In this document: in pieces, positions 34,566-64,000 of the stretch | How positions within the stretch are numbered: position 1 is the first letter of the stretch | Layout: every line of letters begins with the position of its first letter | From: Candidatus Shapirobacteria bacterium | GTDB lineage: Bacteria > Patescibacteriota > Microgenomatia > UBA12405 | DNA length: 64,000 bases | Reading direction: 5' to 3' | NCBI GenBank assembly: GCA_041665485.1 | Contig: JBAYIT010000002.1 | Coordinates: 133,867 to 197,866 of the forward strand | Notes under the pieces: generated by a model | What the model was told of the DNA's origin: nothing | Seen by the model: the letters and a program-made list of their open reading frames with translations, nothing else | The model's database searches: none | Made by a program: the position numbers and the translations under genes

Positions 34566-34839
34566 TAAAAAAAAAACACCCCAAAGTCACAGAACAAGGT
34601 AATTATTTCAGGATAGACAAACAAAAATCAAACGGAAAAATAATCAAAAAAATAGGGGAGATATTTGGTGAAGGCTGTTAGTTTCAGGGCAAACAACCTT
34701 CGAAATGCCGACGGCTCAACAATCTGCTAAGCCTAAACTCATAATACCATACATCTCGCGATTAGACAATAATATATCCGTACAATACCGCACAAAACAT
34801 CTATTGACAAGTAACTTTCCCTCCTTTCCCTATAATTCC

Positions 34840-35921: not shown

Positions 35922-36076
35922 AAAGGAGGGGATAGGGGTAGATTTTAATTTTAAGCCCCAAAAAAACACACATCAAATACATACTTGCGTTAAATTTGCC
36001 AAACTATAGGCCTAAACGCGACACTTTCCTCATTTTTCTGTATACTCTTTCTAATAATAAACCGATTCTGATTCAA

Positions 36077-39000
36077 ATGAACTTCCGCCAGTTAGCTACT
36101 ATCATTATTCTTTTCTTTCTCTTCCCCTCGTTTATCGCCAAAAAGGCTTATGCCGCCAACCGCACTTGGGATGGCGGTGGCGGGGCTAACACCAATTGGT
36201 CAACTGCCGCCAACTGGTTAGACAACACTGTCCCCTTATCTGGCGACGCCGTTATTTTTGACGGCACTTCCTCCAACAACTCAACCATCGACGCCTCGTT
36301 TGCCGGCACCATTACCAGCCTTTCCATCAACGCCGGTTACGGTGGCACTATCACTCAAGAGCGGTCTCTAACCACCAGTGGTGGTTTTACCCAATCCGCC
36401 GGAACCTATACCGCCGCCGCCCAATCGCTTACCGTCAATGCATCACTAACTCTAAACGGTGGCTCCCTGACTGCCTCCTCAGTAACAACTACTATTGGCG
36501 GTAGCTTAGCCTTAAATGGGGGAATATTCAGCCACAACTCCGGTAACATCGTTTTTTCCACTACTAATTCCACCACCATCACTTGTACTGCCGGCCCTCT
36601 AAACACCATCTCCATTAGTAAAGCCAACAGCAGTATTCAAGTTACCATCTCAGCCAATTGTATTGTTAATTTTCCCAGCGCCGATCCCAGTTCAACCGGC
36701 GCCATTATTAACAACGGAACGGTAAATATAACCGGTAACTGGTCACTTACCGGCGATTACACCGCCAACGTCGGATCATCACTAGCCGTCACCGGCACTA
36801 CTCTATCCGCCCGCCATCTTGTCCTAACCGGAGGCGTTTTTCCCCAAGGAATAACCGATATTACCCTCGGTGGCAATCTAACCAATACCGCCAATCTTCT
36901 TCCCAACGGCACCAATCTTATCCTTAATGGCTCCGTCAATAGCACCCTAAATTGTGGCACTGCCACTTTTTCTTCCCTTACCATCAGCAAGGCTGGCTAC
37001 TACGATGTCAATATTTCCAACAATTGTGCTTTTTCTATTGCTGGCACCAATCCCACCTCAACCGGAAAAATAGTCAATAGTGGCAATCTCACTGTTACTG
37101 GTAATTGGACCGTCAACGGCAGTTATCAAAGCGAAACCGGAGGCCAACTTTCCCTGTCGGGCACCGATCTCACCCTCCAAAGAGACCTTGTCATCAATGG
37201 CGGTTCTTTTCCCGCTTCAAAAAACATCATTTTCAGCGGAAATAGTAGCACTGTTCTTACTTGTGCCAACGCCACCTTTAATTCTGTCTCTCTTTCTCAC
37301 GGTTGGAATTACACTATCAGTATTTCCGCCGGTTGCACCGTTCCTCTATCCGGCACTAATCCGACTATTTCCGGCGGAGTCACCAACAATGGTTCGATTG
37401 GCGCCACTGGCAATTTAACTATAGATGGTGGCTACATTCAAAACTCTGGCGCTTCTCTTCAAATTTCTGGCACTTCTCTTTCTATCGGTCATGGAAATTT
37501 AACTCTTTCCGGTGGTTCTTTTCCCCAAAACATCACCACTATTAGTGTTGAAAATGGCGTTGTTGACAACTCCCAAAGTCTCATCCCCAATGGAGTTGAT
37601 CTTACTCTAACTGGGTCAAGTACTAATAATATTTCTTGTGGTAATGCCAACTTCAATAGTATTACTTTAAACAGAACTGTCGGGGGAATCACTCCTGTTA
37701 GTAATTGCAATATCGGCAATCTAACTATCACCACCGGCGTTATCAATAACTCCGCCACCGCTTATTCATACAATATTACTGGAAACTATTCTCAAGCCTC
37801 TCCCGGATCTGTTGGTGGTTCTAATCTTACCCTGGCTTTTACCGGAAGTTTGGCCCAAACTATCTCAAAAGTCGGTGGCACCCTTGCTTCCCCCCTCCAA
37901 ATTAATAAAACTGGCTCAAATGCTCTGTCACTTTCAACTCCGCTTACCACCACTTCAACTTGTACTGTCACTGAAGGTATCTTCAATCTCAATGGCCAGT
38001 TATTTACCTGTGGCTCAACTTTCACCATCGAAGACGGTGGCACTCTTACCTTATTTGGCTCTGAAATACCTACCACTCCTACTCTTGATTCGGGATCAAA
38101 TGTTATCTACAAAGGAAACGGTGGAGAAAATCAAAATGTTTACAAAGTTAAAGCCTGGAATTATTCCAATCTAACTATTAACCCCACCAATAGCCAAGAT
38201 ATCATCACCTCTACCGTCACTGATTATCTCCCCGGTGCTACTTATCGCTATTGGAAATTCGACGACGGAGTCGGAACAAGTACTGTCGACAGTTCCGGAA
38301 ATAGTGTCAATGGAGTTTTACAAAACATGGAGGCCGACGATTGGAATTCATCCATAAAAGCCACCCTGCCCTTCACCAACGGTTATTCGCTCGCCTTCGA
38401 TGGTTCAACCAGCGAACAGGTTGTTGTCAGCGATGCTATCGATCCAACCGCCTATACTATTTGTGCTTGGGTTCGCCCCTCAGACGTTACCAGTACTAGT
38501 ATTATTATAAGATCCGGAGCCGTTCCCACCACCACTTATCAAGACCAAATATTGATTGACTCCAATAGTAAATTCGAATATTACTCCTATGACGGCGCCT
38601 CCGTCAGGGTTGTCGGCACCTCCACCGTCGTCGCCAATCAATGGCACCATGTTTGCGTTTCCGCCCAAAATAACGGTCAAGCCAAACTATACGTCAATGG
38701 TGTCAGCGAAGGCACCCCCGACACCGTCGGCACTCTAGCCACCACCGCCGACCGCTGGGCTATCGGTTCAAATAGTGGTGGGTCTATGGGTTGGTATGCC
38801 GGCTATATCGACGATGTCCGAGTTTACAACACTGTTTTGTCCGACAACCAAATTTATGCCCTTTCTGACATCGGTCCATCAGTTATCAGCGCCATTACTG
38901 TTGGCGGAAACTTCACTATTACCAGTGGAACTTTTATTTCTCCCACCACTTTTAACATCGCCGGCAATTGGTCAAACACCGGCCTCTTTACTCACAATAA

Positions 39001-46695: not shown

Positions 46696-48462
46696 TTGCT
46701 ATTCTTAACTATGATCGTCTTGGTTCTTCTTTTTCTACTTCTTACTAGTCCGACGCTTGCCACTGGCGAATTTTCTCTTTCCAAAAGCACCTCCTACCAC
46801 TTCGATCAAGCCGGCCTGGCCACCGTCGAAGAAACCATCGACCTTCAAAATAATTATTCCCAAATTTACCCCACCCAGTATTCTCTCTCCTTAACCAGCA
46901 CCACCTTAAAAAATATTATCGCCAACGATTCATCCGGAAATATTCTCCAAAACACCACTACCGACTCCCAAACCAACACCACTGTTATCAACCTTAAATT
47001 CAATCATCCCGGAGTCGGCAAAGACAAAAACACCACCTTTCAGCTCCGTTACCAACTAGATAATTTAGCCAAGCTTAAGGGCAATACCTGGGAAATTAGT
47101 CTCCCCCAAATCGAGCCCGAAGTTACTCAAAAAAGCCTCAAAATCTCTATCCCTCGCTCTTTTGGCCCGGTCGCTTTTGCCTCAGTTCCCTTTACTTCCC
47201 AGGAAAAAGTCGATTCCCAGGAAATCAGCCTTACTCCCCAGCCAAAAAACAAAATTTTAATCACTTTTGGTGATTACCAATTATTTAATTTTAACCTCAC
47301 CTACGAGCTTCAAAACCAACAATCGTCCCCAAGTTATCTCAAAATTCCCCTCCCTCCCGACACTAGCCATCAACGGGTCATTTTTAGTCATCTCACTCCC
47401 CGGCCGGAAAATATTTCCTCCGATCCCGACGGCAACTGGCTAGCCACCTATCTTCTTGAGCCTCAATCAAATCTTACTGTCACCACCTCCGGCCAGGTAC
47501 AAACTTTTAGTCTTGTTTTAGAGCCAACTTCACCCCTTCCTCAACACACCCAATCCCAATCGCTCTGGCCCATCGATAATCCTCAAATTCAAACCACCAT
47601 TGCCAATTTCAAAACCCCCAAAAACATCTATGATTTTGTTGTTTCTCATCTTGATTATAACTACGACCTCATCAATAACCCCTCCCGCAAAGGCGCCCTT
47701 TCTGCTCTCGCTGATCCCAAGAACTCTCTTTGCACCGAGTTTACCGACCTCTTTGTCACTCTTGCCCGGGCCAAAGGTATTCCCGCCCGGGAAATTGAAG
47801 GCTACGCCCTCACCAACGATTCCAAAATCAAGCCGGTCAACCCCGTCTCCGACATCCTCCACGCTTGGCCTCAATACTTCGATTTCGCCAGAAAATCCTG
47901 GATTGATATCGACCCGACTTGGGCCAAAACCACTGCTGGCGTCGATTATTTTTCCGATATTGATTTAAACCACGTCACCCTGGTTATTCACGGTCTCGAT
48001 AGCTTTAACCCCCCGCCTCCCGGCTCCTATCGCCTAACTCAAAACAAAACGGTTGACTTTTCTCTTGCCAAAACCAAAATCCCCGCCACCAACCTTCCTC
48101 CCATCATCAACTTTACCAATTCTCCTCAAAAAAAGTTATTTCTTACTCTTTCCAACCCCAATCTCCATTCCCTAAAATCCGTCAAAATCACTAGTCAAGG
48201 TTGGTCGTGGGAAAGCCCCTCTCTCCCTCCGCTCTCTATCACCAACATCTCTCCCCCTCAAACCTCCTGGCTGGCTTCACTTCTGCCTCAAAATCGCCAG
48301 CTCAATCTTACCCTCGAGTACGGCGTCAACACCACCAATCTCAAACTCAATTATCCTCGTCATTTTTCCAATCTTTTTCTACTTATTGGTATTGCTATTG
48401 TTGGCCTAAGTATTGGAGGTATAATATTAACTACATCTCACCATGATCAAAAGACTGGCTAA
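46696..48462 (+). CDS. transglutaminase-like cysteine protease domain protein, secreted/membrane-anchored
   Basis: Signal peptide. Core CTEFTDLFVTLARAKGIPAREIEGY...HAW (Cys-His) and a C-terminal TM. Confidence 0.55.
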   Translation: MLFLTMIVLVLLFLLLTSPTLATGEFSLSKSTSYHFDQAGLATVEETIDLQNNYSQIYPTQYSLSLTSTTLKNIIANDSSGNILQNTTTDSQTNTTVINLKFNHPGVGKDKNTTFQLRYQLDNLAKLKGNTWEISLPQIEPEVTQKSLKISIPRSFGPVAFASVPFTSQEKVDSQEISLTPQPKNKILITFGDYQLFNFNLTYELQNQQSSPSYLKIPLPPDTSHQRVIFSHLTPRPENISSDPDGNWLATYLLEPQSNLTVTTSGQVQTFSLVLEPTSPLPQHTQSQSLWPIDNPQIQTTIANFKTPKNIYDFVVSHLDYNYDLINNPSRKGALSALADPKNSLCTEFTDLFVTLARAKGIPAREIEGYALTNDSKIKPVNPVSDILHAWPQYFDFARKSWIDIDPTWAKTTAGVDYFSDIDLNHVTLVIHGLDSFNPPPPGSYRLTQNKTVDFSLAKTKIPATNLPPIINFTNSPQKKLFLTLSNPNLHSLKSVKITSQGWSWESPSLPPLSITNISPPQTSWLASLLPQNRQLNLTLEYGVNTTNLKLNYPRHFSNLFLLIGIAIVGLSIGGIILTTSHHDQKTG

Positions 48463-48850
48463 ATACACTCTCCTCTCTGTCTTTGCCCTAATTACTGTCA
48501 ATCAAATTTGGGGCAACTTTTCTTTCCTCCCTGTCCTTGTCCTCCTTAAATCCGCCCTGGTTCTCTCTCTTTTTGAAGTTATCCTCAAGCCGATTGTCAA
48601 ATTGCTTCTCTTGCCAATCAATATCCTAACTTTGGGTCTTTTCCGCATTATTATTAATACTCTCGGTCTTTACCTGGCCATTTATTTTGTTCCCGAATTC
48701 AAGGTTGGCAACATTGCCACTTCCGGCTTTTCCTGGCAGGGTTTTGTCATCCCCGCCTTTAGTTTTCAGGCTTTTTTTGCTATCCTCGTTTCTTCCTTTA
48801 CTTTTAGTATTATATTTTATCTATTCAAGCTAATTTGCACTAAAAAATGA
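48443..48850 (+). CDS. phage holin family protein (4-TMS superfamily IV) / small membrane protein
   Basis: 135 aa with 4 TM helices and the motif LPINILTLGLFRIIINTLGLYL. Confidence 0.5.
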   Translation: MIKRLAKYTLLSVFALITVNQIWGNFSFLPVLVLLKSALVLSLFEVILKPIVKLLLLPINILTLGLFRIIINTLGLYLAIYFVPEFKVGNIATSGFSWQGFVIPAFSFQAFFAILVSSFTFSIIFYLFKLICTKK

Positions 48851-51756: not shown

Positions 51757-52223
51757 ATGCTTATTTTCATTGACGAATCTGGTGATGCTGGTTTTAGAAT
51801 CCAAAAAGGTTCGTCTGCCCACTTTGTCATATCTCTAGTTATTTTCGACGATGAACTAGATGCCGAAGAAACAGCTCTAAAAATAAAGAGATTAAAAAAG
51901 AGTTATTTTACGCCTTTTCCCTACGAATGGTTCTCCAACATAATCGTCGCACTATTGGTAATGCCAAAATAAGACTTGATGGTACCGGAGAAAGAGAATT
52001 CAAAAAGCAATTAACACTATACCTACGCCAAAATTTAAATACAAATACCCAAAAAGTAATAAAGAACTTTAAATTCAGAAATTCAAAAAGTGATGTCCTA
52101 ATTCAACTCGCAGATATGATAGCTGGCAGTCTTCGTCGATATTTTGATCATTCAACTACGGATTGGAATATTTACCGAAAAATAATCAAACACAGAGAAG
52201 AAGACACCTGGGAGTTTCAGTAA
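51757..52223 (+). pseudogene. DUF3800-family gene disrupted by a frameshift
   Basis: ORF 51757-51972 begins MLIFIDESGDAG, the DUF3800 N-terminal hallmark. ORF 51927-52223, in another frame, ends with DVLIQLADMIAG, the C-terminal hallmark. The frames switch within or near aaaataaagagattaaaaaag. Confidence 0.6.
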
Positions 52224-52366
52224 ATAAATCGACCCAACGCCTATTTTGACGATTGTCAAAAACGCACACCATACGGTGACAGTTCGGCTATTGGGTCTTT
52301 GTAAAAGAAGTTTAACAACAAAACCACTAAAAAACAAACACCACCCAAGTTTGGTAAAATAACCTA

Positions 52367-55219
52367 ATGTTGGCTCGGTTAAAAAACATCCCCGCCTTTT
52401 TCTTCTGGCTCCTTAATCTAAGTTTAGCTACTACTGTTCTTGGTTGGCTTGGCACTTTTGTTTGGCAGATACTAAGCCAAGCTAGTTACAACGATATTAA
52501 AAGCTTTTTTTCTTCTATTCCACTGGACATCGCCATTACTATCGTCGTGGTTCTGGCCATGCCTTTTCTTCTCATCGCCCTTGTTTTTATCACCAAAAAC
52601 CAACACAACTCCACCAAACTTTCTCAACTCCTGCTTGGTGTTGAACTGCCCACCATTGCCTTTACCATAGCCAGACTCATCTTCCTAAAAACCCTCATCC
52701 CCACCAATATCTTATTTCTCTCCACCGCCGTTATTAGCATTTTCGCCTACATCATCTATATTTTCAAAAAATCATATAACAATCGGCTTTTAAAAATTCT
52801 TCACACTCTCGCTCTCCAGTCCGCTGTCGTCGTTGGCGTTTATGCCTCTCTCTTAATGTTCTTTTTTCTGCCTATTTTTATCGCTTTTATTTTCCAAATC
52901 ATCAATTCTCTTTTTCATCTTGGTTTTAGTTTTGGCAACGAACCCAATTTATGGATCCTAGCCACTGGCTTAATTAGCTTTTTCGCCTTCTCACTCCTCG
53001 CTCTGTCTTTAATTTGTAGTCCTTTTATCGGCCTGGTTGCCTATTTCAAAGCTTCTGCCCGGCTCGACCAACATTTCAAGTCGGCCCGCCTCGGCTTTAG
53101 TTCTGCTTATGTTTTTTTGACTCTGATTCTGGCCTATCAATCGAGCCTTATATTTTTTAACAGTCAAATTGATGTCTATAAAAATACCACCGAATTCAAA
53201 CAACGTTCTAAAATCGCTTCCCAAATTTTAAAGAATCAGAACTTTATAAAAAACCGCCTGGTCGACACCTACCTGGCTCATTATCAATATCTCACCGACA
53301 GCCAAATGTCTGTTTTAAAACAAGCTTATCTTGATCAAACCAACATTAAAGAACCGCTGGCCAATAACCTCCAAAACTGGTTTCTCGCCCTGGCCTACCC
53401 CTTCGTTTATCAAGGTCATTTTGAAGAAGATGTTAAAAATGCCGACCAAAATTATCAACTAATTTTTGACGAACCCATTCAACTTGCTCAAAGCCAAAAA
53501 GTAAAATCTATTCTATCTACTTCCTTTAATATTTCTTCCGACCAACTCAAATCATCAATTTTAGATAGGGAGGACCAAGATGTACTTCTTGTAAACCGCC
53601 AAATTAGCGTCACCCCCGATTCCCGCCATCAATTTGCCACCGTTACCATCGAAGAAGAATATGAGAATCTCACCCCCGCCGATCAGGAAGTTTTTTACCT
53701 CTTCTCTCTTCCCCAAGATTCGGTTATTACTGATCTCAAACTTGGCCCCGATCTAAATCTAACCAGCGATCATCTTGAAACTATCTCTCCCATTATTCCC
53801 ACTCCGGCTCCCCAAGTTAGCCTTAAGCCAACTCTGGCAATCCCCAAACCCATCGAACAAAAAGATTCAGGGCAGGTCGCCCCCAAAGGTGCTGCCGATT
53901 CTACCTTTGAAAACCAATACCGATTCCGTATCGATCCGGCCATTCTCGAGCAAGTTAGTCCAGTCTCCTATCAGCTTCGAGTTTATCCTATTCCCGTAAC
54001 TGAAAAAAACCTCTCTTCTTGGCAAAGAGACAATCTTACTGCTCCAGTCAGAAATCAGAAAGTTCGCTATAGTTATGTCACTGTCATCGATCAAAACGGC
54101 CAAGTTGCTCTCCCCAAAATTCAGGAACAAAGAAATTTAGTCAAAAGCGACAAAACCATTTTTGCCGCCTCCCAACCAATTCCCAATTTTTCTCCTAATT
54201 CTCCTAATCTCCGCTTCGTTAATGGCCTCACCCAAACCCTCTATCTTCACCAACCCAACACTTCTCTAGTCTCAATTGACAACAAAAAAATCGCCATCCT
54301 GGCCGACTCTTCTTACACTATGGGGGTCAAAGATTGGCAATCATTTCTAAGTCAACAACTGCCTCTATCCACCCTTGTTCAAACCAATATCGTCGATCTC
54401 TACTATTTTAATGACCTGGTTTCGCCGGCTGTTAATCTCAATCAACAAATCAATAACCCCAAAGCCTTTACCCAAGTTGCTTTCGGCCAAACCAACCGTC
54501 TTCAGGCTCTCAAATATGTCCAAGGTAAATATGATTTAGTTTTAATGTTTACCGACCCCTCTCCGGCCGACAGCTCCTCTCAAACCAGCCCTTCTCTCCA
54601 AAACAACCAAGCTATTTACTTAATTTTTAAGGACAATCAATTTCCTAAGTTCCCCGACCCATTAACTTTTTATCTTCAAGCCAACAGGGCTATTATTACC
54701 TCCAGCGGTCAATTAGCTCTGGAAAACTATGCTCATCTCCTCACTCTAAAAAATCAATTTGCCAATTCTTCTGTTTTGGTTACCGACTCCGGCTCCTGGG
54801 TAACCATGCCCACAAGCATTAGTTCGCCTATAAATTTCCAGACGCTATCACCGTCCGATCCTGCCGCCAAATTAGCTCTCCACCGCCAAATCGAAACTCA
54901 AATGGGGGATTCCTCCCGTTTTGATTCCCTAAACTCTCTGGCCGCCTCAGCTGGCATCGTCACTCCCTTATCCTCTCTTATTGTCCTCACCACCCCCGAG
55001 CAAAAAGAACAGCTTCGCCTTGCCTCGCTTGGTCAAAACCGCTTTACTTCCAACTTCAATCTGGGCGAAGAGCAACTTATCGAGCCCCAGTCCGGCGGTT
55101 TTCTCTCCGGCAGTGCTGTTCCCGAACCGCACGAGTGGCTATTAATCATCACCTCTCTCTTGCTTTTTGGATTTCTTGGTCGACATCAAATCAAGGCTCT
55201 AGTTTCTTCCCATGCTTAG
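52367..55219 (+). CDS. PEP-CTERM (VPEP) sorting-signal protein: N-terminal polytopic membrane domain + extracellular VIT/vWA-like region
   Basis: The C-terminus SAVPEPHEWLLIITSLLLFGFLGRHQIK has PEP, a TM segment and a basic tail. About 8 N-terminal TM helices. A possible MIDAS-like KKIAILADSSYTM. 950 aa. Confidence 0.6.
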   Translation: MLARLKNIPAFFFWLLNLSLATTVLGWLGTFVWQILSQASYNDIKSFFSSIPLDIAITIVVVLAMPFLLIALVFITKNQHNSTKLSQLLLGVELPTIAFTIARLIFLKTLIPTNILFLSTAVISIFAYIIYIFKKSYNNRLLKILHTLALQSAVVVGVYASLLMFFFLPIFIAFIFQIINSLFHLGFSFGNEPNLWILATGLISFFAFSLLALSLICSPFIGLVAYFKASARLDQHFKSARLGFSSAYVFLTLILAYQSSLIFFNSQIDVYKNTTEFKQRSKIASQILKNQNFIKNRLVDTYLAHYQYLTDSQMSVLKQAYLDQTNIKEPLANNLQNWFLALAYPFVYQGHFEEDVKNADQNYQLIFDEPIQLAQSQKVKSILSTSFNISSDQLKSSILDREDQDVLLVNRQISVTPDSRHQFATVTIEEEYENLTPADQEVFYLFSLPQDSVITDLKLGPDLNLTSDHLETISPIIPTPAPQVSLKPTLAIPKPIEQKDSGQVAPKGAADSTFENQYRFRIDPAILEQVSPVSYQLRVYPIPVTEKNLSSWQRDNLTAPVRNQKVRYSYVTVIDQNGQVALPKIQEQRNLVKSDKTIFAASQPIPNFSPNSPNLRFVNGLTQTLYLHQPNTSLVSIDNKKIAILADSSYTMGVKDWQSFLSQQLPLSTLVQTNIVDLYYFNDLVSPAVNLNQQINNPKAFTQVAFGQTNRLQALKYVQGKYDLVLMFTDPSPADSSSQTSPSLQNNQAIYLIFKDNQFPKFPDPLTFYLQANRAIITSSGQLALENYAHLLTLKNQFANSSVLVTDSGSWVTMPTSISSPINFQTLSPSDPAAKLALHRQIETQMGDSSRFDSLNSLAASAGIVTPLSSLIVLTTPEQKEQLRLASLGQNRFTSNFNLGEEQLIEPQSGGFLSGSAVPEPHEWLLIITSLLLFGFLGRHQIKALVSSHA

Positions 55220-56606
55220 CCTTATTGCTCTTCTGCTTATTTTTATCTTTTGGCCGGGGTTTACTGAAATTTTTCGAATTTACACTAGCCCTTGGTTTTT
55301 CGACAACGCCCTAACTGCCTCTGCCATCCTCATACTTTTTTTCTTTCTCGCTCGCAAACAAATCAACGTTAAAACTTGTCCCAAGATTCTCCCACCCGCC
55401 TTCCTTATCCTTTCCCTGGCTTTAATCCTAAATAATTGTCTTGGCAATTTCCAAATTATTAGTCCGATTTTAGCCTATTTGGCCATCTATTTATTTTTAG
55501 GCCTGATTCTCAACTACGGCTTTTGGCAAAGAAGCTTTCCTATCTTTGTTCTTTTAATCCTTACTCTCCCCATTCTTGAACGTCTCCAAAAATTTATCGG
55601 CTTTCCCCTTCGCCTTCTTACTGCCGATCTTGTCAGCATTCTTTTGCAATTAATCGGAGTTGCCAACCTCTCTCAATCCACTGTCATCATCACTGAGAAT
55701 CACGCCACCACCATCGATCTCCCTTGTGGTGGTGTCAAAAGCATTTATTTTGGCGCTATCTTTTTACTGGCTAGCTTTTTTCTTAATCGGGTTAAATTAT
55801 CCCTCAAGTCTCTCTCTATTGGCCTTATCTTTTTTGTCCTTCTTTTCTTTTTTAATTTCTGGCGGGTATTTTCCCTCACCTACATTTACGGTGTTCTCAA
55901 GCTCTCCGGAGTAGGGGATAGTATTCATCTCACTCTTGGCCTTATCGGCTTTATTCTCTCCTGTCTATTTCTCTGGTTTCAAAGTCAAAAGCTCTCCTCT
56001 CCACCTCCCGCCACCAAATCTCCATCAACAATTTCCGCTTCGCCAAAATTTATTATTCTAATTTTACTATCAACCATTATTTTAAATTATCTATTCAAGT
56101 CGCCTCAACCGCCAGCCGTCCTCCCGCAAAACGTTTCCTTTACTCTCCCAGAACTTACTCTCGCCTCTATTCCTCTAACTGCTAAAGAACAAAGTCTCTT
56201 CTTTACTCCCGATGTCAGCCTGGCCGCCAAATATCAATTTGTTTGGCACAACAAAAACGTCAGTCTTCTTTTAGTAAAAAGTAAATCAGCCCGTAGCCAC
56301 CATGATCCTCAAATCTGTCTCCAAAGTCTTGGCTATAAATTAGCCAATGAAGAAAATATTATGGTTGCATCGCACTTTATCAAGCAAATTGAAATCGATC
56401 CGGGTTTTGCCTATTACTGGTATCAAAGTTCAAACGACATTATTTCTGATTATTCCCAGCGTGTTTGGCAACAGTTTAATCGCCCCAATCAGGATTGGGT
56501 TTTAGTCGAGCTTCTTATCCCCAAGTCCCAACAACCAACTTCCGCCGAGTTATCCCAACTTTTTCTTCTCATCAGCCTCTCCGTCAACTCCCAACTCCTC
56601 AATTAA
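55212..56606 (+). CDS. exosortase (EpsH family) fused to EpsI-like domain
   Basis: PLRLLTADLVSILLQLIGV...TIDLPCGGVKSIYFG...FNFWRVFSL...SIHLTLG matches exosortase conserved Cys, Arg and His blocks. The C-terminal SHHDPQICLQSLGY matches the EpsI HsPxxCL motif. Confidence 0.7.
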   Translation: MLSLIALLLIFIFWPGFTEIFRIYTSPWFFDNALTASAILILFFFLARKQINVKTCPKILPPAFLILSLALILNNCLGNFQIISPILAYLAIYLFLGLILNYGFWQRSFPIFVLLILTLPILERLQKFIGFPLRLLTADLVSILLQLIGVANLSQSTVIITENHATTIDLPCGGVKSIYFGAIFLLASFFLNRVKLSLKSLSIGLIFFVLLFFFNFWRVFSLTYIYGVLKLSGVGDSIHLTLGLIGFILSCLFLWFQSQKLSSPPPATKSPSTISASPKFIILILLSTIILNYLFKSPQPPAVLPQNVSFTLPELTLASIPLTAKEQSLFFTPDVSLAAKYQFVWHNKNVSLLLVKSKSARSHHDPQICLQSLGYKLANEENIMVASHFIKQIEIDPGFAYYWYQSSNDIISDYSQRVWQQFNRPNQDWVLVELLIPKSQQPTSAELSQLFLLISLSVNSQLLN

Positions 56607-57751: not shown

Positions 57752-58963
57752 TCATGAACCAACTGGTTTTGAATTTACTATTTTTTTCACCCAATATCTG
57801 CCCTTATTAGTTTTCAACTCCCGCTCTCTTTTTTGAGCCGTGTATTTATCCTCAAAATCTTCTTTGTAAACCAACTCAAACGGCTTGTTTAATTTGGTAA
57901 ACCTCCCTCCCCGTCCGCTATTGTGCGCCTTTAATCTCTTGTCAAAGTCGCCGGTATAGCCGGTATAAAACTTGCCATTTACCAGACTCCTCAGCACATA
58001 GACGTTCCACATTTCACCCGCCTTTATTCTCTTGTATGCCCGAAGTATTTTAAGATTTTGAATGGTCAAAACACCAACCCAATACATTTTTGATTTTTCC
58101 CAGTCAGACTCATACTGATACCAATTCCAGTTCGGAAACCACACCCCATTATCGGTAATTGTCTCCATTAAAAAATCAAGATTTTTTTCAATTCCACCAT
58201 TCACAACATCATACAAAAAATAGCTAGGATTATCAGCAAAGCTTACTGGTTGCGGATTATACGTTTTCCATAAATCTGAATCCGTTACCACTAGTTTTCT
58301 TGTTGCATTTATTAAGTTCGATTCTAGTCTTTTAGCCAACTCCACTGGCAATAATTTATGTAGTCTAATATAACAGTAAACCTCGTGTTCAGATTTAAAA
58401 TCATCAAGTTTCTCCCAGTAACAAATTGTATTTTCTAACAATTCATTTATATCTAGCGATCTTAAAAACTGACGATATTTATACAAATAGCCAACCACTT
58501 CCGCAGTCGGATTTCCCCAGTGTTCATCAATCGAAGTTTGTTTTTTATTGTTATCCCAATTCCACCAAATAGCATGCGGATAATTATTCACATCTTCGGT
58601 CATCGCCAACCAACCTTTTCTTTCTGCAACATAACTATTTTCCAGATATTCAACAAGATTACCAACCATTACAGAATCGACAATATTACCTTCGCTTATT
58701 ATCTGTAAGGCAATTGTTGAAGCTAAAACAGATGACTGTGGATGTGTCGAATCAGGCTCCAATCCGTTTCCAAAACCACCGTCACTGTTTTGAAAACCCT
58801 TCAGTTCTTCCAATACTTTTTCTAAATCACCATTATTAAACAGATATTCAAATCTGACAACCTCTAACTTTCGGCAATTATTTTTCAAATATTTTCGAGA
58901 TTCTTCAAGAATATCAGTAGAAACTATCTTCATGACTTGATTATACTCTACCAAAATACGCAC
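57752..58963 (-). CDS. fusion protein: prenyltransferase-like alpha/alpha-toroid repeat domain + C-terminal GIY-YIG nuclease domain
   Basis: N-terminal QNSDGGFGNGLEPDSTHPQSSVLASTIAL is a prenyltransferase/terpene-cyclase beta-subunit-type repeat. C-terminal WNVYVLRSLVNGKFYTGYTGDFDKRLKAHNSG...RERELK is GIY-YIG. Confidence 0.55.
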   Translation of the reverse strand: MRILVEYNQVMKIVSTDILEESRKYLKNNCRKLEVVRFEYLFNNGDLEKVLEELKGFQNSDGGFGNGLEPDSTHPQSSVLASTIALQIISEGNIVDSVMVGNLVEYLENSYVAERKGWLAMTEDVNNYPHAIWWNWDNNKKQTSIDEHWGNPTAEVVGYLYKYRQFLRSLDINELLENTICYWEKLDDFKSEHEVYCYIRLHKLLPVELAKRLESNLINATRKLVVTDSDLWKTYNPQPVSFADNPSYFLYDVVNGGIEKNLDFLMETITDNGVWFPNWNWYQYESDWEKSKMYWVGVLTIQNLKILRAYKRIKAGEMWNVYVLRSLVNGKFYTGYTGDFDKRLKAHNSGRGGRFTKLNKPFELVYKEDFEDKYTAQKRERELKTNKGRYWVKKIVNSKPVGS

Positions 58964-59384: not shown

Positions 59385-59849
59385 ATGAATACCTCTATGG
59401 CTTTATTTCATAGAAACTCTTTTAATTCCAAGTTATACGATCAGAACAGTTTTTATGACAGTTTCATTAAGGATCTAAAAAACTGTCATAAAGAAGTGGT
59501 CATAGAAAGCCCTTATATTACATTTTCACGCATGGTGTATTTTTATCCAATTTTTAAGAAGTTACTTGCTAACAAAATCAGATTACATATCGTTACCAGA
59601 GACCCCAGCAATCACGATGATGCGTTCATGAAACACCAAGCAACCAATGAGATATTACAGTGCGTAGAGCTCGGAATTGATGTGGCACTGCTTAAAGGCT
59701 ATCATCACCGGAAACTGGCAATTATTGACAACAATATTCTTTGGGAAGGGAGCTTGAATATCTTATCTTTTAGTAACAGCAGAGAGATAATGAGACGAAT
59801 TGAAGGCGAGAAATATGTTCGGGAAATGCAAAAGTTTTTAAAGCTTTAA
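59385..59849 (+). CDS. phospholipase D-like (HKD) nuclease, Nuc/PLD-family single-HKD protein
   Basis: HHRKLAIIDNNILWEGSLNI fits H-x-K-x4-D-x6-G-S-x-N. 154 aa. Confidence 0.65.
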   Translation: MNTSMALFHRNSFNSKLYDQNSFYDSFIKDLKNCHKEVVIESPYITFSRMVYFYPIFKKLLANKIRLHIVTRDPSNHDDAFMKHQATNEILQCVELGIDVALLKGYHHRKLAIIDNNILWEGSLNILSFSNSREIMRRIEGEKYVREMQKFLKL

Positions 59850-59856
59850 AAATTAG

Positions 59857-60069
59857 TTACTTACTTCTCAAGGGTAATTTTACTTCTATTTTTAAAGCTT
59901 TCGCTATGTTTTCAACAATATCAATACGAGGGGTTACTTCGCCTCTTTCAACTCTGGCGTAGTAATTAAAATGAATACCCGCCTTTTCAGCTACTTCAGC
60001 CTGAGTTAATCCGGCTTTTTCGCGAGCAGTTTTAAGAATTTTGGCTAATTGTTGGTCTTCTTTTCCCAT
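59857..60069 (-). CDS. XRE-family HTH transcriptional regulator
   Basis: LTQAEVAEKAGIHFNYYARVERGE HTH. 70 aa. Confidence 0.75.
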   Translation of the reverse strand: MGKEDQQLAKILKTAREKAGLTQAEVAEKAGIHFNYYARVERGEVTPRIDIVENIAKALKIEVKLPLRSK

Positions 60070-60286
60070 ATTTGTATCCTACTCCGTAATTATACAACTT
60101 TTCGAGATAGTTTGTCTCCCGATTCAAAATTTAGCCTTAAAATTCATTTAGCCCCATTTTTTGCCTGATTTTTTCTTTTTTGAAACAAGTTTGAAAATTT
60201 TTAGTAATAAAGGCGAGAGCAAGACCTAACCCATTCGTATGTATTTATTTTGACAGATTGTATACAATGAAGTAGAGAGTAATTAT

Positions 60287-61312
60287 ATGGCCAATTCAAA
60301 TGAAAAAATAATTAGGGATAGAATAAGAATGTCATCTGGTAAGCAATTCCAGCAGTTAGTTTGGGACATTTTGGCTTGTCATTATCCAAATATTACTTTG
60401 CCCAAGATGCTACATGATTTAGGTAGTGATGGTCACGATTTTAGTAGTAAGACATTTTTTGCTGTTTATGCACCAGATTCTTTGAATTATGAAAACAAAG
60501 CCACTTTAAAGAAAATTTCGAATCCTAATCCTAGAAAATCTGAGGAGTTAGGAGATTACGAAAAGTTTTTTAATAATTGGCTGACTAAATTTAAGTTTAC
60601 AAAGTGGGTGTTTGTTACCTCAGATAATTTGATGGGTTTACCTAATCAAAAAATTGCAGAGTTGAATAGTAATGGTGATAATGTCATTAAAGAGTTGTGG
60701 GGTCTGGACAAGTTGGTAAAACTAACATTAGATTTAAAACAACAAGATCTTAATAGAATTTTTGACCTAGGTAGTCTCTCAAGCCAAAACATACAAAATC
60801 AATTTATTAGCAACGCTACAAAAGGAAATGTTTATCAGGCGGTTGAAATGCAGATAGTCACACCTTTAACTTCAAATACAAATCCAAACGAGGTAGAGAC
60901 GATTATGGATTTAATATATTATATATCAGATAATAACGAGCTCACAAAGGAGGGGTTTAAGAATTCAATACCTGATCCAGATAAAAAGCTAGAAAGATTC
61001 TCTGATTATTGTGTTCAGCTAAAACGGGAAATTGTGGATAGTTGGATGTATTCAACAGCACAAAAAGAGGCCGAAAGTGTAATTGGTCTAGACAAAATTA
61101 TGATTGGGAAAATCGTAGGGTTTTTAAAACAAATTAGTTTAAGATTTTTGAGTGAGAATGGTAGTGACCCTATGGTGGCGTTAAATAAACTAACAGATTA
61201 TTTTGAAGATGCTTTAAAAAAAGTAAATAAACATTATGACCATAACGCGATAAGGTATTATTTAATAGCAGAGATACCTAAGTGTAATGTATTCCCAAAT
61301 GATTATGAATAA
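60287..61312 (+). CDS. hypothetical protein, possible LmuA/DdmA-like (Cap4-type nuclease N-domain) effector
   Basis: 341 aa. N-terminal SGKQFQQLVWDILACHYP...DLGSDGHDF...FFAVYAP suggests a PD-(D/E)xK-like core. It is the first gene of a 3-gene cassette with an SMC-like ATPase. The assignment is inferred. Confidence 0.35.
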   Translation: MANSNEKIIRDRIRMSSGKQFQQLVWDILACHYPNITLPKMLHDLGSDGHDFSSKTFFAVYAPDSLNYENKATLKKISNPNPRKSEELGDYEKFFNNWLTKFKFTKWVFVTSDNLMGLPNQKIAELNSNGDNVIKELWGLDKLVKLTLDLKQQDLNRIFDLGSLSSQNIQNQFISNATKGNVYQAVEMQIVTPLTSNTNPNEVETIMDLIYYISDNNELTKEGFKNSIPDPDKKLERFSDYCVQLKREIVDSWMYSTAQKEAESVIGLDKIMIGKIVGFLKQISLRFLSENGSDPMVALNKLTDYFEDALKKVNKHYDHNAIRYYLIAEIPKCNVFPNDYE

Positions 61313-61541
61313 CTTAATAACTAAGGACGAGACAATTAAAACTTCGCCAATATATATTGGGTATCTAATTTTGAAAGTTTTAAAAACAAAAAAGGACGAT
61401 AAAGCTACTATTTTTGATGTGACCGACCACCTTAAAAGAGAACTAAAGGTAATCCATTATCGTCAAATAGTACTATCATTGGTTTTTTTGCATACTGCTG
61501 GAGTCATTAATTTTACTGAGCCGTATATTTATCGTATATGA
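61287..61541 (+). CDS. small protein (84 aa), middle gene of the cassette
   Basis: It overlaps the upstream gene by 26 nt and the downstream gene by 4 nt (ATGA), which suggests translational coupling. Confidence 0.35.
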   Translation: MYSQMIMNNLITKDETIKTSPIYIGYLILKVLKTKKDDKATIFDVTDHLKRELKVIHYRQIVLSLVFLHTAGVINFTEPYIYRI

Positions 61542-63277
61542 GGATAAAACTTTTACGTCTTTATTCATCACCAGAAATATTTAAACCCATTGATTTTACT
61601 GATGGTATAAATTTAATAATGGGAGAAAAGGTTGAAGACGAGAGTGTTAAAAAGGGGAAAAAGACTAATGGTGTAGGCAAGTCGATGTGTATCGAGTTTA
61701 TTAATTTTTGTCTTCTCAAGAAAACATCAGACAGTAGGGTATCAAAAATTCCGCTTGATAAATTTATGGAGGACACGCAGATAATATTAGATTTGGAAAT
61801 TAATTCCAATTATATAAAAATCACAAGAACCAAACAAAAGCCAGACAATCCAACCATTGTGAAAGATGGTGTTGAAACTGAATTCTCAAGCATAGAAGAT
61901 GCAAATCAATATTTAAAAGAACTTTTATTTTCTAATGTAGAAAATGCAACATTGGGATTTAGGGAGTTTTTAGGGCCGTTCGTAAGAGATGAAGAATCTG
62001 AATACAAGGATATTCTGTCTTGCTATGATCTATCAAAAAGAATCCCGCCGTCTGTTAAACCTCATGCTTTTCTTTTCGGTTTTGATATTTCGATTATCAA
62101 CGGTATCGAAAAATTATTTAAAGAGATAGAAAAAGTAAATACTCACAAGCTACAATTACAAAAATCTTTAACTGAGAACAAAACAAGAAAAATAAGGGAC
62201 GTCAAGGCAGTTTTAAACTCTTTAAACGATGACTTGAGAAAAATAGACACAGCGCTAGAGAGCTTTAAAACAAATGAGGCATATGAAGTAATGCAGGAGG
62301 ATTTGGGTAAGATCCAACTAGAAATTGAGAATTTACGTGCTAGACAAACTGCTCTCAAATATGAATTGAGAAAAGTTAAATCTTTCCCTTCTCTTGAAGT
62401 AATTAAAAGGAAAGAGATAGAAATAATCTATGAACAATTCAAATCGGGTCTCGGAGAGATAGTTTCAAAATCAATCGATGAAGTCGTTGGGTTTAAAGAA
62501 AAAATAGACGAATTTCAAAAACGATTGTTAGTGGAGAAGGTAGCTTCACTAGAAGAAGAATTAGATATCGTTACTACAAAATTGCAGAATCTTGAAAATA
62601 GTAAGGTCGATAAATTAAAAGTAATTGATCAGAAAGGTGTATTAAAAGACATAAAAAATGGGTATGCGATTTATCATCAGAAAAGAGATTCGTACTCATA
62701 TCTTCAGAACACATATGAAGCATATGATAAAGCAGATAGCGATTGGAAAAAACTTAGGCTAGAGAAGGACCAAATGTTCTTAAAGTTGGATGCGCAGATT
62801 TTTGACGCTAGAACAATAATCGGAAATTTCAATGATACTATTGTTGAGATTCATTCTTACATCATGGATAGCAACGAAGCCTCTTTCGATATTAAGACTG
62901 TGAATGAAAGTAAAAGTAAACAGATACTTTCGTTTGATATGAGGATTGATGATGACGGAAGCCATAGTATAGATAGAACTAAGGTTTTTATATATGACTT
63001 AGCTTTGTTATTTAATGAATATACAAATAAAAGACATCCAAAATTTCTGATTCACGACAACATATTTGACGTTGATCAGGACACTCTAATTAAAAGTCTA
63101 AATTATCTCTCTAGAAAAGAAAGCCAAAAGTTCCAGTATATTTTGACATTAAATAGAGACAAAATAGAAAATGAAGAACAAAGCAAATTGCTTGAATTAG
63201 ATATTAAAGAACACAGAGTAGCAAACTTCACCAAAAAAGATAGATTTCTTTATGGCGATAAATATTCGGAAGTATAA
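61538..63277 (+). CDS. SMC/Rad50-like ABC ATPase with long internal coiled coil (LmuB/DdmC-like)
   Basis: N-terminal FTDGINLIMGEKVEDESVKKGKKTNGVGKS (P-loop NGxGKS). A ~250-aa heptad-rich coiled-coil insert. C-terminal VFIYDLALLF...KFLIHDNIFDVDQD (Walker B/D-loop). Confidence 0.6.
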   Translation: MRIKLLRLYSSPEIFKPIDFTDGINLIMGEKVEDESVKKGKKTNGVGKSMCIEFINFCLLKKTSDSRVSKIPLDKFMEDTQIILDLEINSNYIKITRTKQKPDNPTIVKDGVETEFSSIEDANQYLKELLFSNVENATLGFREFLGPFVRDEESEYKDILSCYDLSKRIPPSVKPHAFLFGFDISIINGIEKLFKEIEKVNTHKLQLQKSLTENKTRKIRDVKAVLNSLNDDLRKIDTALESFKTNEAYEVMQEDLGKIQLEIENLRARQTALKYELRKVKSFPSLEVIKRKEIEIIYEQFKSGLGEIVSKSIDEVVGFKEKIDEFQKRLLVEKVASLEEELDIVTTKLQNLENSKVDKLKVIDQKGVLKDIKNGYAIYHQKRDSYSYLQNTYEAYDKADSDWKKLRLEKDQMFLKLDAQIFDARTIIGNFNDTIVEIHSYIMDSNEASFDIKTVNESKSKQILSFDMRIDDDGSHSIDRTKVFIYDLALLFNEYTNKRHPKFLIHDNIFDVDQDTLIKSLNYLSRKESQKFQYILTLNRDKIENEEQSKLLELDIKEHRVANFTKKDRFLYGDKYSEV

Positions 63278-63350
63278 TCTTACTATTTGTCGCTGAAGTA
63301 AGTGGTAAGCAAAGAAAACTAGCGAATTGAAATCGCCCAATAAAACAAGA

Positions 63351-63992
63351 TTACCAATCTAGGTAAACCCTTTGTACTTTTTGTTTTAGAATAACACTAC
63401 CCTCTATAAGATAATAACTTTCCGTATTGTTATTAAAAGCACTTTTTAATGAAGCTACAAAGGGCTTTGAATCCATTTCATAAATCAAGCTCGCTACGTC
63501 TGGGAATTCAACCTGGCTTTTGCCTATCAAAAGATAATTTTTGTGAGTATACAAATCATTAACGCCAAGATAGGTTATATTGTTGACTATCGATACGGCG
63601 GTAATTAGATTTTTTGAGGTATAAACTTCTTTTTGTTTTTTTGTTTTTATATCGATACTAATCAATTTATTCTCTGAAAAATTAGGGTCTACTTTGGTAA
63701 CACACAATACTTCACTTGTGCTTTTAATAAATCCCAAATCACACAATACTCCTAAGCTATCCTGATTAAATTGTGTACTTTTACCGCTGTTATAGAGAGT
63801 ATTGTTACCATCATAATCTAAAAGCGATTGTTTGATTTCCTTTTCCTTGTTTTTGGTTGGCAGATTATAAATATAACTAATTTGTTGAGAAGGTTTTATG
63901 ACTAACAAATACGGATAGTGCATCAAGATTTTATCCGGATATTGGCTTAGTGAATAGGTATCATCAAATACATATAACTTTGCATTTTCCAA
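63351..63992 (-). CDS. hypothetical protein (may extend beyond the window edge)
   Basis: 213-aa ORF with no motif. Its start lies within 8 nt of the window end. Confidence 0.3.
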   Translation of the reverse strand: MENAKLYVFDDTYSLSQYPDKILMHYPYLLVIKPSQQISYIYNLPTKNKEKEIKQSLLDYDGNNTLYNSGKSTQFNQDSLGVLCDLGFIKSTSEVLCVTKVDPNFSENKLISIDIKTKKQKEVYTSKNLITAVSIVNNITYLGVNDLYTHKNYLLIGKSQVEFPDVASLIYEMDSKPFVASLKSAFNNNTESYYLIEGSVILKQKVQRVYLDW

Positions 63993-64000
63993 ATATACAG

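Follow-up and report, generated by a model that had tools for sequence, protein, structure and literature searches.

A Predicted Exosortase O Cassette with a Single Membrane-Embedded VIT-vWA Target in Candidatus Shapirobacteria

Introduction

The question raised by this locus is whether two overlapping genes of a bacterium of the candidate phyla radiation (CPR) form a dedicated protein-sorting system and, if so, of which type. They lie in a 64-kb stretch of Candidatus Shapirobacteria DNA (hereafter, the window), and a first-pass annotation, made from the sequence alone, had read them as a one-enzyme/one-target exosortase system in a possible CPR host. The cassette is of an already catalogued type, consisting of exosortase O (XrtO) and its single membrane-embedded, adhesin-like target. 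Only the host stands out: such systems were first tied to an outer membrane, which this tiny CPR bacterium is believed not to have.

Results and Discussion

Gene Organization and Family Assignment

The junction between the target and XrtO genes reads ATGCTTAG, with the XrtO start within the target stop region, in agreement with the 8-nt overlap described at first (Table 1). The other sequence-level statements of the first-pass annotation were likewise confirmed. The XrtO match to TIGR04489 spans profile positions 65–450 of 451, and the best TIGR02921 alignment of the target covers the N-terminal half only (aa 12–465). Because both proteins exceed curated family cut-offs, these matches are not chance; because both scores are just above those cut-offs, the CPR cassette represents a divergent branch. 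This combination of genes is not new. Curated HMMs exist for both families, and a public protein of Candidatus Shapirobacteria bacterium, named 'exosortase O' by NCBI and JGI, is identical to the enzyme. The entry identical to the target is the NCBI 'hypothetical protein WCV93_03005' of Ca. Shapirobacteria bacterium. The integral-membrane PEP-CTERM family was noted already in 2006 (PMC1569441), and the searched literature contains no experimental study of any XrtO or TIGR02921 member.

The first-pass annotation had suggested a search with exosortase subtype models, XrtN among them. A subtype was indeed found, namely XrtO; XrtN was rejected, with 66.8 vs 200 bits for the enzyme and 49.9 vs 250 bits for the XrtN-target model.

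Table 1. Positions of the two genes and their predicted features in the window.
Feature	Position	Strand	Evidence
Target gene, TIGR02921-family PEP-CTERM integral membrane protein, 950 aa	52367..55219	+	ORF; TIGR02921 252.4 bits (cut-off 200)
N-terminal polytopic membrane module, aa 1–264	52367..53158	+	Hydropathy; AlphaFold2 helices; charge bias; invariant residues
Helical juxtamembrane domain, aa 265–400	53159..53566	+	AlphaFold2 helices 262–400, pLDDT about 80–90
VIT-type beta-sandwich, aa ~401–590	53567..54136	+	Pfam VIT PF08487; AlphaFold2 strands 406–589; ITIH1 fold match
vWA-like alpha/beta domain, aa ~640–890	54284..55036	+	AlphaFold2 alternating strands/helices, pLDDT 85–96; Foldseek
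PEP-CTERM sorting signal: V918-PEP-HEW, TM helix 924–938, basic R939-HQIK943	55118..55195	+	Sequence; profile matches; relatives
Exosortase O (XrtO) gene, 464 aa; 8-nt overlap with the end of the target gene	55212..56606	+	TIGR04489 269.2 bits (cut-off 250)
Exosortase membrane core, aa 1–258	55212..55985	+	Pfam PF09721, 70.9 bits over aa 7–256
Candidate catalytic C172, R218, H239	55725–55727, 55863–55865, 55926–55928	+	Invariant in 16 relatives
Ninth TM helix (aa 272–298) and extracytoplasmic EpsI-like C-terminal domain	56025..56603	+	Hydropathy; invariant H364, P366, C369, Q371

Architecture of the Target

About eight N-terminal TM helices had been proposed for the target, and the analyses agree: hydropathy gives 8–9 hydrophobic segments across aa 8–264, and AlphaFold2 models eight long helices (4–36, 53–75, 82–106, 112–133, 140–165, 168–187, 195–233, and 235–256). 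Conserved or invariant residues of this module include E93-x-P95, Y159, P169, and P219, and among solved structures it has no fold match (best E 1.1). Positive-inside loop analysis favors seven crossings, with the N-terminus in and the C-terminus out. Since AlphaFold2 gives eight helices, and the ectodomain would end up on the wrong side if the module crossed the membrane an even number of times, this most likely topology is inferred from charge bias alone. The juxtamembrane domain that follows has invariant Y308, Y321, Q336, F339, A343, and P345; relatives align over aa ~45–400, such that it is conserved along with the membrane module.

The VIT/vWA-like ectodomain that had been suggested is corroborated. 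Pfam VIT (PF08487) matches aa 413–458 with 30.9 bits (cut-off 26.5), and a disordered Pro-rich insert (aa 465–498) lies inside this domain. For the vWA region, a Pfam search returned no VWA match even at E<=10, and the assignment is based on the predicted fold and on a MIDAS-like motif (metal-ion-dependent adhesion site; D647-x-S649-x-T651 ... T709 ... D730), of which the pattern DxSxS/T...T...D is conserved among relatives. The top Foldseek match of the ectodomain is inter-alpha-inhibitor heavy chain 1 (6fpy, E 2.8e-12), and the vWA part matches vWA/I-domains (1shu and 2b2x, E~0.045) and Cav alpha2delta (7mix_D, E 9e-3). The predicted model thus resembles a VIT-vWA unit of the inter-alpha-inhibitor-heavy-chain type.

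The target ends in ...S916-A-V918-P-E-P921-H-E-W924-LLIITSLLLFGFLG-R939-HQIK943-ALVSSHA, which the first-pass annotation had recognized as a PEP-CTERM tail (VPEP-[TM]-GRHQIK). The generic model TIGR02595 scores it at 13.9 bits, just below the cut-off of 16, and scores two orthologous tails above it (16.9 and 16.7). All profile matches of the tail are to the C-terminal ends of PEP-CTERM families. Among the 109 PEP-bearing relatives, PEPxxW is present in 99 and PEP[EH]EW in 78, and the tail VPEPHEW-TM-RHQIK, judged by its sequence, matches this family-specific signal.

The Exosortase O Enzyme

The exosortase blocks reported at first (PCGG, FWRV, and IHLT) are present as P171-C172-G-G, F-W-R218-V, and I-H239-L-T, within a core that scores above the Exosortase_EpsH (PF09721) cut-off of 25.7. 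The Cys/Arg/His positions are unvaried even in relatives down to 26% identity. A Cys/Arg/His triad has been proposed, together with a definition of dedicated one-to-one systems (bioRxiv 10.1101/2023.06.07.544157). The first-pass annotation had also described a fusion to an EpsI-like domain. This was upheld by the relatives: the block H363-H-D-P-Q-I-C369-L follows the invariant pattern HHDPxxCLQ, and 12 of 16 relatives match DUF3485 (PF11984; best E 5e-6), although the domain of the window's own enzyme has no match to this model at E<=0.01. TIGR02914 (EpsI_fam) gives 25.7 bits on one orthologue (L001; cut-off 42.8). The EpsI-like domain falls within the XrtO profile TIGR04489, and EpsH-EpsI fusions have been described previously (Haft et al., 2006; PMC1569441).

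Pairing of Enzyme and Target

Wherever upstream sequence is available, in seven loci (the window, L001, L003, L004, L005, L006, and L008), XrtO lies next to the target, and L003 and L008 share the 8-nt overlap. XrtO (330 bits) is likewise paired with a TIGR02921 protein (731 bits) in the canonical locus L007. As a natural control, neither gene calls nor tblastn detected an exosortase within 8 kb of two relatives without PEP (P0040 and P0042). The PEP-CTERM count suggested in the first-pass annotation covered the 64-kb window, which holds no such tail other than that of the target, and these patterns bear out the claim of a dedicated one-enzyme/one-target system. The target precedes XrtO in each of the seven CPR-type loci, whereas XrtO comes first in L007, the one canonical locus examined. 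The cassette is a divergent, gene-order-reversed CPR clade of a known dedicated system that is experimentally unstudied in the searched literature.

Genes so strictly paired 1:1, with the start of one overlapping the stop of the other, imply that both proteins are made in equal amounts; for an enzyme that processes its partner catalytically, this is unusual. It may instead reflect a stable 1:1 membrane complex, in which the PEP-CTERM helix docks in XrtO but is not turned over, and XrtO serves as a scaffold or regulator rather than an enzyme, for example by gating the VIT-vWA conformation. However, this explanation is highly improbable, because the invariance of Cys, Arg, and His across distant relatives argues for retained catalysis, and in other dedicated sorting systems the protease is also co-operonic with its target (bioRxiv 10.1101/2023.06.07.544157).

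Host and Genomic Setting

The suspected CPR host is Candidatus Shapirobacteria, of the Patescibacteria/Microgenomates group. A contaminant, or a recent transfer from a diderm bacterium, would make the monoderm context meaningless, and Hahella holds canonical family members, while the nearest reference-genome loci are labelled as Methylococcaceae and Pseudomonadales MAGs. Nevertheless, this explanation is largely refuted and almost certainly wrong. The cassette is located on a 335-kb Shapirobacteria contig and shares the GC content (0.41–0.43) and extreme strand-specific skew (-0.35) of the host backbone, unlike the obvious low-GC islands of the window. For L003, the named best matches of a DnaJ-like neighbour are all to Patescibacteria, Woesebacteria, and Pacebacteria (58–77% identity), such that its 'Pseudomonadales' label is a binning error. 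Moreover, the cassette clade is present under six CPR lineage labels, among them the Woese-, Roizman-, Uhr-, Magasanik-, and Parcubacteria labels of further orthologues.

Because CPR bacteria are regarded as monoderm (10.1101/2021.05.31.446380) and no EPS or polysaccharide genes flank the cassette, neither an outer membrane nor an EPS matrix, the assumed destinations of classical PEP-CTERM proteins, can apply here. The searched literature contains no description of PEP-CTERM sorting in a setting that is both monoderm and free of EPS. Taken together, it is likely that the pair is a dedicated XrtO/TIGR02921 protein-sorting cassette that belongs to the CPR bacterium itself.

Proposed Mechanism

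The 8-nt overlap may provide translational coupling and roughly 1:1 expression of target and XrtO. The target would insert with its seven-crossing module, placing VIT-vWA and the MIDAS-like metal site outside the cell, and its C-terminal helix would pass back into the membrane, leaving RHQIK on the cytoplasmic side, such that the precursor would be held at both ends. By analogy with homologous systems, XrtO would read the family-specific VPEP-H-E-W at the outer membrane face and then cut away the C-terminal helix, and the new C-terminus would probably be passed to an acceptor, either a lipid or a wall/surface glycan, as with archaeosortase A. The EpsI-like domain is a candidate for positioning the acceptor or substrate. 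The mature target, kept on the cell by its N-terminal module, would display a metal-dependent adhesion domain.

Alternatively, XrtO may be a maturation protease only, which clips the C-terminal helix without transfer, freeing the vWA end and leaving the N-terminal module as the sole anchor. A target with a permanent anchor would not need a second, covalent one, acceptor-synthesis and EPS genes were not found nearby, and one-step transpeptidation is unproven even for archaeosortase A (ArtA) according to Haft (bioRxiv 10.1101/2023.06.07.544157). On the other hand, the conserved extracytoplasmic EpsI-like domain with its invariant His/Pro/Cys/Gln suggests more than cleavage, and the best-studied homologue links cleavage with lipid attachment (PMC9263693). 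Protease activity without transfer is an alternative, albeit an unlikely one.

Comparison with Known Systems

The canonical XrtO/TIGR02921 pair, as in Hahella spp. and locus L007, exceeds the same HMM cut-offs as the pair in the window, with the same adjacent one-to-one pairing and the same build: a target with a polytopic N-terminus, VIT-vWA, and [VT]PEP[EH]EW-TM-basic tail, and an enzyme with an 8-TM exosortase core, extra TM helix, and EpsI-like domain. The CPR clade differs by its lower scores (targets 252–418 vs 731 bits; enzymes 254–290 vs 330 bits), by an identity of about 26–29% to canonical members, and by its host, not a diderm proteobacterium but a CPR bacterium with a small genome that is considered monoderm.

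Exosortase N (TIGR04476) is likewise dedicated to one large VIT-domain PEP-CTERM target (TIGR04477). The proteins in the window match the XrtN models weakly; the match of the target is limited to C-terminal aa 838–939, and its tail aligns to the last 24 positions of TIGR04477. Orthologues also weakly match, in the VIT region, two VIT-vWA families on which other dedicated sorting enzymes act, namely TIGR03788 (marine sortase target) and TIGR04286 (MSEP-CTERM). Although ITIH1 (PDB 6FPY) is the best fold match of the ectodomain, the identity is about 11% and the global TM-score 0.25–0.36, and ITIH proteins are soluble, eukaryotic, and without a membrane module, unlike the target. ITIH heavy chains undergo C-terminal cleavage and then covalent transfer to a glycan, and the likeness to the target is one of analogy.

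The classical PEP-CTERM/XrtA (EpsH) system of EPS-producing diderm bacteria shares the superfamily PF09721, the conserved Cys-x-Gly, and the tripartite PEP-TM-basic signal. However, a genome typically encodes many of its targets (median 8), which carry signal peptides; the system is located in EPS loci and has been reported from outer-membrane bacteria only (PMC1569441). In the window, by contrast, a CPR host has a single target, polytopic at its N-terminus, and EPS genes do not adjoin the cassette. Archaeosortase A/PGF-CTERM of Haloferax volcanii represents a homologous family of polytopic cysteine proteases, acting in an envelope with a single membrane. It strips a surface protein of its C-terminal TM helix, with lipid attachment after cleavage; the conserved catalytic Cys and Arg are essential, and activity depends critically on Cys173, Arg214, and Arg253 (PMC9263693). 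It differs in its PGF rather than PEP motif, many substrates, archaeal prenyl-lipid acceptor, and substrate without an N-terminal membrane module. For a host that is monoderm, archaeosortase A offers the best model of the mechanism.

Exosortase of the cassette

The first-pass annotation had described a dedicated system in which one exosortase serves one adjacent PEP-CTERM protein, and every sequence feature it listed was found in place. The features discussed here are compiled in the table. The downstream 464-aa protein is, as judged by profile matching, exosortase O (XrtO). It scores 269.2 bits against the NCBIfam model TIGR04489 (curated cut-off 250), covering profile positions 65–450 of 451, and the Pfam Exosortase_EpsH model (PF09721) also matches (70.9 bits). 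The short exo_archaeo signature model (TIGR04178) is marginally missed, at 22.8 against a cut-off of 23. Other exosortase subtypes score far lower, with XrtT next (64.1) after XrtN (66.8). The suggestion of an XrtN subtype is ruled out, as the enzyme's XrtN score compares with a cut-off of 200 (TIGR04476) and the target reaches 49.9 against 250 for proteins sorted by XrtN (TIGR04477). An identical enzyme sequence is already public on a 335-kb contig as "MAG: exosortase O [Candidatus Shapirobacteria bacterium]", a name given by both NCBI and JGI. The XrtO profile had no match at E<=1 among the sequences of solved structures.

Coordinates of the exosortase cassette and other features in the window
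Feature	Position	Strand	Remarks
Type I restriction-modification (R-M) genes	29438-34565		inside a low-GC, low-skew island
R-M specificity subunit	30232-31446		type I R-M
R-M restriction subunit	32211-34565		ResIII and EcoEI_R_C domains
Probable surface protein	35996-41239	+	1747 aa; Laminin_G_3 and chitobiase/hexosaminidase C-terminal domains
Transglutaminase-core and Phage_holin_4_2-family proteins	46696-48850	+	588 aa with C-terminal TM helix, and 135 aa; 20-nt overlap
Truncated DUF3800 ORF	51927-52223	+	matches PF12686 over no more than its final 60 positions
DUF3800-IX RNA motif (Rfam)	52227-52297	-	66 bits, gathering score 36.8
Target gene	52367..55219	+	ORF, 950 aa
XrtO gene	55212..56606	+	ORF, 464 aa
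GIY-YIG fusion protein	57752-58963	-	403 aa; C-terminal GIY-YIG nuclease (aa 318-389), N-terminal region of ~300 aa without Pfam match

Hydropathy analysis of the enzyme indicates about eight helices in the core and a ninth at aa 272–298, followed by a soluble domain; the position of the ninth helix ahead of this domain places the domain outside the membrane. The enzyme carries the motifs PCGG (C172), FWRV (R218), and IHLT (H239) in the core and HHDPQICL (aa 363–370) in the C-terminal domain. In an alignment of 16 sequences with identities down to 26%, the core residues C172, R218, and H239 are invariant, as are H364, P366, C369, and Q371 of the C-terminal domain. A non-catalytic 1:1 complex of XrtO and its target is unlikely, being disfavored by the invariant Cys/Arg/His triad, and a catalytic role for XrtO is preferred here.

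The exosortase-EpsI fusion proposed earlier holds for the exosortase core, whereas the EpsI part is recognizable through relatives. The C-terminal domain of the window enzyme matches XrtO profile positions 326–450 (91 bits), and it gave no match to PF11984 at E<=0.01 or to TIGR02914 at E<=10. Among the enzyme relatives, 12 of 16 match DUF3485/EpsI (PF11984), and the orthologue at reference locus L001 reaches 25.7 bits with TIGR02914, below the cut-off of 42.8. Since the window copy falls below the EpsI thresholds, its assignment to EpsI rests on homology within the family.

Pairing of exosortase and target

As claimed, a single target adjoins a single exosortase. The ORF list and the junction sequence (ATGCTTAG) confirm that the target gene comes first and that its stop overlaps the XrtO start by 8 nt. 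In a scan of reference genomes, a homologue of 945–1048 aa lies directly 5' of the XrtO gene at all five loci that include upstream sequence, and the C-termini of these homologues have the form VPEP[HE]EW-TM-basic. The metagenomic locus L008 has the same arrangement, including the 8-nt overlap. XrtO therefore adjoins a TIGR02921-family target in the window, in each of the six further loci that include upstream sequence, and also in the canonical locus L007 (XrtO, 330 bits; TIGR02921, 731 bits).

Within the 64-kb window there is one genuine PEP-CTERM tail. Two additional regular-expression matches are spurious, as they lie in alternative-frame ORFs within real genes. Relatives of about 1090 aa provide a natural control, in which a tail made up of Gly-rich stretch, TM helix, and Lys-rich end takes the place of PEP; one of these relatives, P0042, scores 158.5 with TIGR02921, below the cut-off. 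No exosortase was found within 8 kb of these PEP-less relatives by gene calls and tblastn. Sorting signal and enzyme co-occur in this family. The sister subclass with the alternative tail (P0037-P0043; loci L009:8001-11276 and L010:6448-9711) comprises proteins of about 1000–1300 aa that have an extra N-terminal extension of about 100 aa and TIGR02921 scores below the cut-off.

Target protein

The 950-aa target is, on the basis of its profile score, a member of the TIGR02921 family ("PEP-CTERM integral membrane protein"), with 252.4 bits against an NCBIfam cut-off of 200 in three stretches, the best of which spans aa 12–465. The corresponding scores are 292 for the L001 orthologue, 418 for that of L004 (another paired locus), and 731 for the canonical L007 protein. 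An identical protein is already public as "hypothetical protein WCV93_03005", its contig being equal in length to that of the enzyme record. The gain in annotation is thus small, as the enzyme was already named correctly and the target moves from "hypothetical" to the TIGR02921 family.

A full-length AlphaFold2 model of the target was built from 21 homologues (pLDDT 78.7, pTM 0.73). It contains eight long helices (aa 4–256), a helical domain (262–400), a beta-sandwich (406–589), and an alpha/beta domain (641–886), followed by a disordered linker and a C-terminal helix. The polytopic N-terminal membrane domain of about eight TM helices described in the first-pass annotation is borne out by hydropathy (8–9 hydrophobic segments) and by the eight helices of the model (pLDDT ~79). 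K/R-rich loops occur at the N-terminus and at positions 76–87, 134–143, and 228–244. This charge bias fits seven crossings with an N-in/C-out topology, which would place the VIT-vWA region outside, as the logic of PEP-CTERM sorting requires, but seven crossings are at odds with the naive count of eight helices.

Modeled by itself, the membrane module reaches a pLDDT of 79.3, and Foldseek found no fold match for it among solved structures (best E 1.1). The possibility that the module is a degenerate exosortase was ruled out when the alignments of both families were compared with hhalign (probability 0.5%). An exhaustive search of 1.84 billion proteins with aa 1–400 as the query returned 214 representative clusters, and nearly all of the proteins bearing the module are 850–1100 aa in length. 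Within predicted TM helix 3, Glu93-x-Pro95 is invariant in all 21 aligned relatives, and this conservation may point to a membrane-embedded functional site.

For the ectodomain, the VIT assignment and the overall fold are supported, whereas the vWA-like part is a tentative assignment from fold and motif in the face of no Pfam match. The VIT model (PF08487) scores 30.9 against a cut-off of 26.5 and covers only profile positions 4–49 of 111. In the AlphaFold2 model, a disordered Pro-rich insert (aa 465–498) splits the VIT beta-sandwich. The top Foldseek match of the target in the PDB is inter-alpha-inhibitor heavy chain 1 (ITIH1; 6FPY), with E 2.8e-12 over about 640 columns; weaker matches include isolated vWA/I-domains (1shu and 2b2x, E~0.045) and Cav alpha2delta. 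Pfam VWA had no match to the vWA-like domain even at E<=10. Residues D647-x-S649-x-T651, T709, and D730 fit the metal-ion-dependent adhesion site (MIDAS) pattern DxSxS...T...D and are kept in the PEP-bearing clade, although the metal site is putative. In host-dependent cells of the candidate phyla radiation (CPR), a surface protein of this VIT-vWA type, if metal-dependent, could plausibly serve in adhesion.

The C-terminus of the target reads SAV918-PEP-HEW-LLIITSLLLFGFLG-R939HQIK-ALVSSHA, with the tripartite arrangement of VPEP, TM helix, and RHQIK expected of the PEP-CTERM signal claimed earlier. The general models are less decisive. The generic model TIGR02595 is a near miss (13.9 against a cut-off of 16), which two orthologous tails clear (16.9 and 16.7), and PF07589 does not match the window tail. 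PF07589 recovers just 22% of PEP-CTERM instances (Haft et al. 2006, PMC1569441). PEP is present in the last 60 residues of 109 of 146 full-length relatives; among these 109, PEPxxW occurs in 99 and PEP[EH]EW in 78. By this comparison of tails, the VPEPHEW of the window is the family-specific flavor PEP[EH]EW.

Genomic setting

The cassette is preceded by genes for transglutaminase-like, holin-family, and solute-binding proteins, a nuclease, and a DUF3800 fragment, and is followed by an unknown gene, NUDIX, and a GIY-YIG fusion. Its neighbors include no polysaccharide genes. Promoter and terminator predictions between 51.8 and 57.3 kb occur at the level of shuffled sequence. The DUF3800-IX RNA motif lies directly after the truncated DUF3800 ORF, on the opposite strand, and its end is 70 nt upstream of the start of the target gene. 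Farther upstream, the 1747-aa probable surface protein has sub-threshold Ig-like and CarboxypepD_reg-like matches and is without a PEP-CTERM tail.

Across genes of both orientations, the backbone of the window (1-59000) shows a very strong, strand-specific GC skew; read along the plus strand it is about -0.3, with a range of -0.05 to -0.59. The skew thus reflects replichore or mutational asymmetry rather than coding bias. Two islands depart from this backbone (29400-34600 and 59400-64000), with GC 0.30–0.35 and skew of about -0.08 to +0.2; the restriction-subunit gene is an exception in GC (0.42). These low-GC islands look recently acquired. The cassette has backbone-like skew (-0.35) and GC (0.41–0.43) and differs from the islands, so it is resident rather than recently imported. 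That the cassette is foreign or contaminant DNA is essentially excluded.

Host and distribution

The suspicion of a CPR host was correct, as the lineage is Patescibacteria group > Microgenomates. PEP-CTERM proteins have been said to be confined to bacteria that possess an outer membrane as well as genes for exopolysaccharide (EPS) (Haft et al. 2006, PMC1569441), and CPR bacteria are described as part of a monoderm clade (10.1101/2021.05.31.446380). Orthologues are labeled Woesebacteria, Roizmanbacteria, Uhrbacteria, Magasanikbacteria, and Parcubacteria, which together with Shapirobacteria makes six CPR labels, and the rule of outer membrane plus EPS fails for this clade. Complete Hahella genomes carry annotated canonical members. 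Since most homologues came with an empty source name, the wider family was only sampled in its taxonomic range.

The closest reference loci (L001, L002, and L003) come from GTDB representative MAGs labeled Methylococcaceae or uncultured Pseudomonadales. For L003, the named best matches of a DnaJ-like neighboring gene all belong to the Patescibacteria group (58–77% identity). The gammaproteobacterial label of L003 is therefore a binning error, a check that covered L003 alone. L001 and L002 (GC 0.39–0.41) are probably also CPR contigs in gammaproteobacterial MAGs.

Proposed mechanism

XrtO would cut the target tail at or beside VPEP, at the membrane's outer face, and the mature target would be held in place by its N-terminal module. 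The new C-terminus may possibly be passed on to an acceptor, lipid or glycan, as the analogy to archaeosortase A suggests; this also accords with the Cys/Arg/His proposal of Haft (bioRxiv 10.1101/2023.06.07.544157). Archaeosortase A depends critically for its activity on the conserved residues Cys173, Arg214, and Arg253, and lipid attachment comes after the action of the enzyme (PMC9263693). Alternatively, XrtO may carry out proteolytic maturation without transfer, which is plausible if rather unlikely. As a one-enzyme/one-substrate pair, the cassette is the simplest setting for studying exosortase chemistry, including cleavage only versus cleavage with transfer and the nature of the acceptor.

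The most far-reaching reading is speculative, and we consider it quite improbable. It holds that the CPR-wide, reversed-order XrtO clade shows PEP-CTERM/exosortase sorting to work in bacteria that have neither outer membrane nor EPS locus; that XrtO covalently links an ITIH-like VIT-vWA adhesin, through its C-terminus, to a glycan or lipid of the surface or host cell; and that the membrane module, with its buried Glu-x-Pro and no match among solved folds, has a function of its own, e.g., as a channel or signal transducer. If true, covalent C-terminal transfer would be an attachment device for the episymbiotic life of ultra-small CPR bacteria. This transfer would echo that of the ITIH heavy chains, which undergo C-terminal transfer onto glycosaminoglycans.

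Comparison with known systems

The literature searched contained nothing on XrtO, TIGR02921, TIGR04489, or exosortases in connection with Patescibacteria/CPR, and no experimental study of any XrtO/TIGR02921 member. The remaining interest of the cassette lies in its monoderm, EPS-free context, its unexplained N-terminal module, and its clean one-to-one pairing. Classical XrtA systems serve many targets per genome, lie in loci for EPS biosynthesis, and belong to hosts that possess an outer membrane (Haft et al. 2006, PMC1569441). In contrast, the window has one tail in 64 kb, no EPS neighbors, a Patescibacteria host, and an XrtA score of 31.3 against a cut-off of 208. The XrtN system (TIGR04476/TIGR04477) differs as well, with both window proteins far below its cut-offs. 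Compared with the one canonical XrtO/TIGR02921 locus examined (L007:8001-12259), in which the exosortase precedes the target and the pair adjoins a Y_Y_Y/HATPase/AraC hybrid regulator, all seven CPR-type loci have the opposite order, with the target preceding XrtO. The system is thus of a known, curated kind, and the window copy falls within a CPR clade that is divergent and has its gene order reversed.
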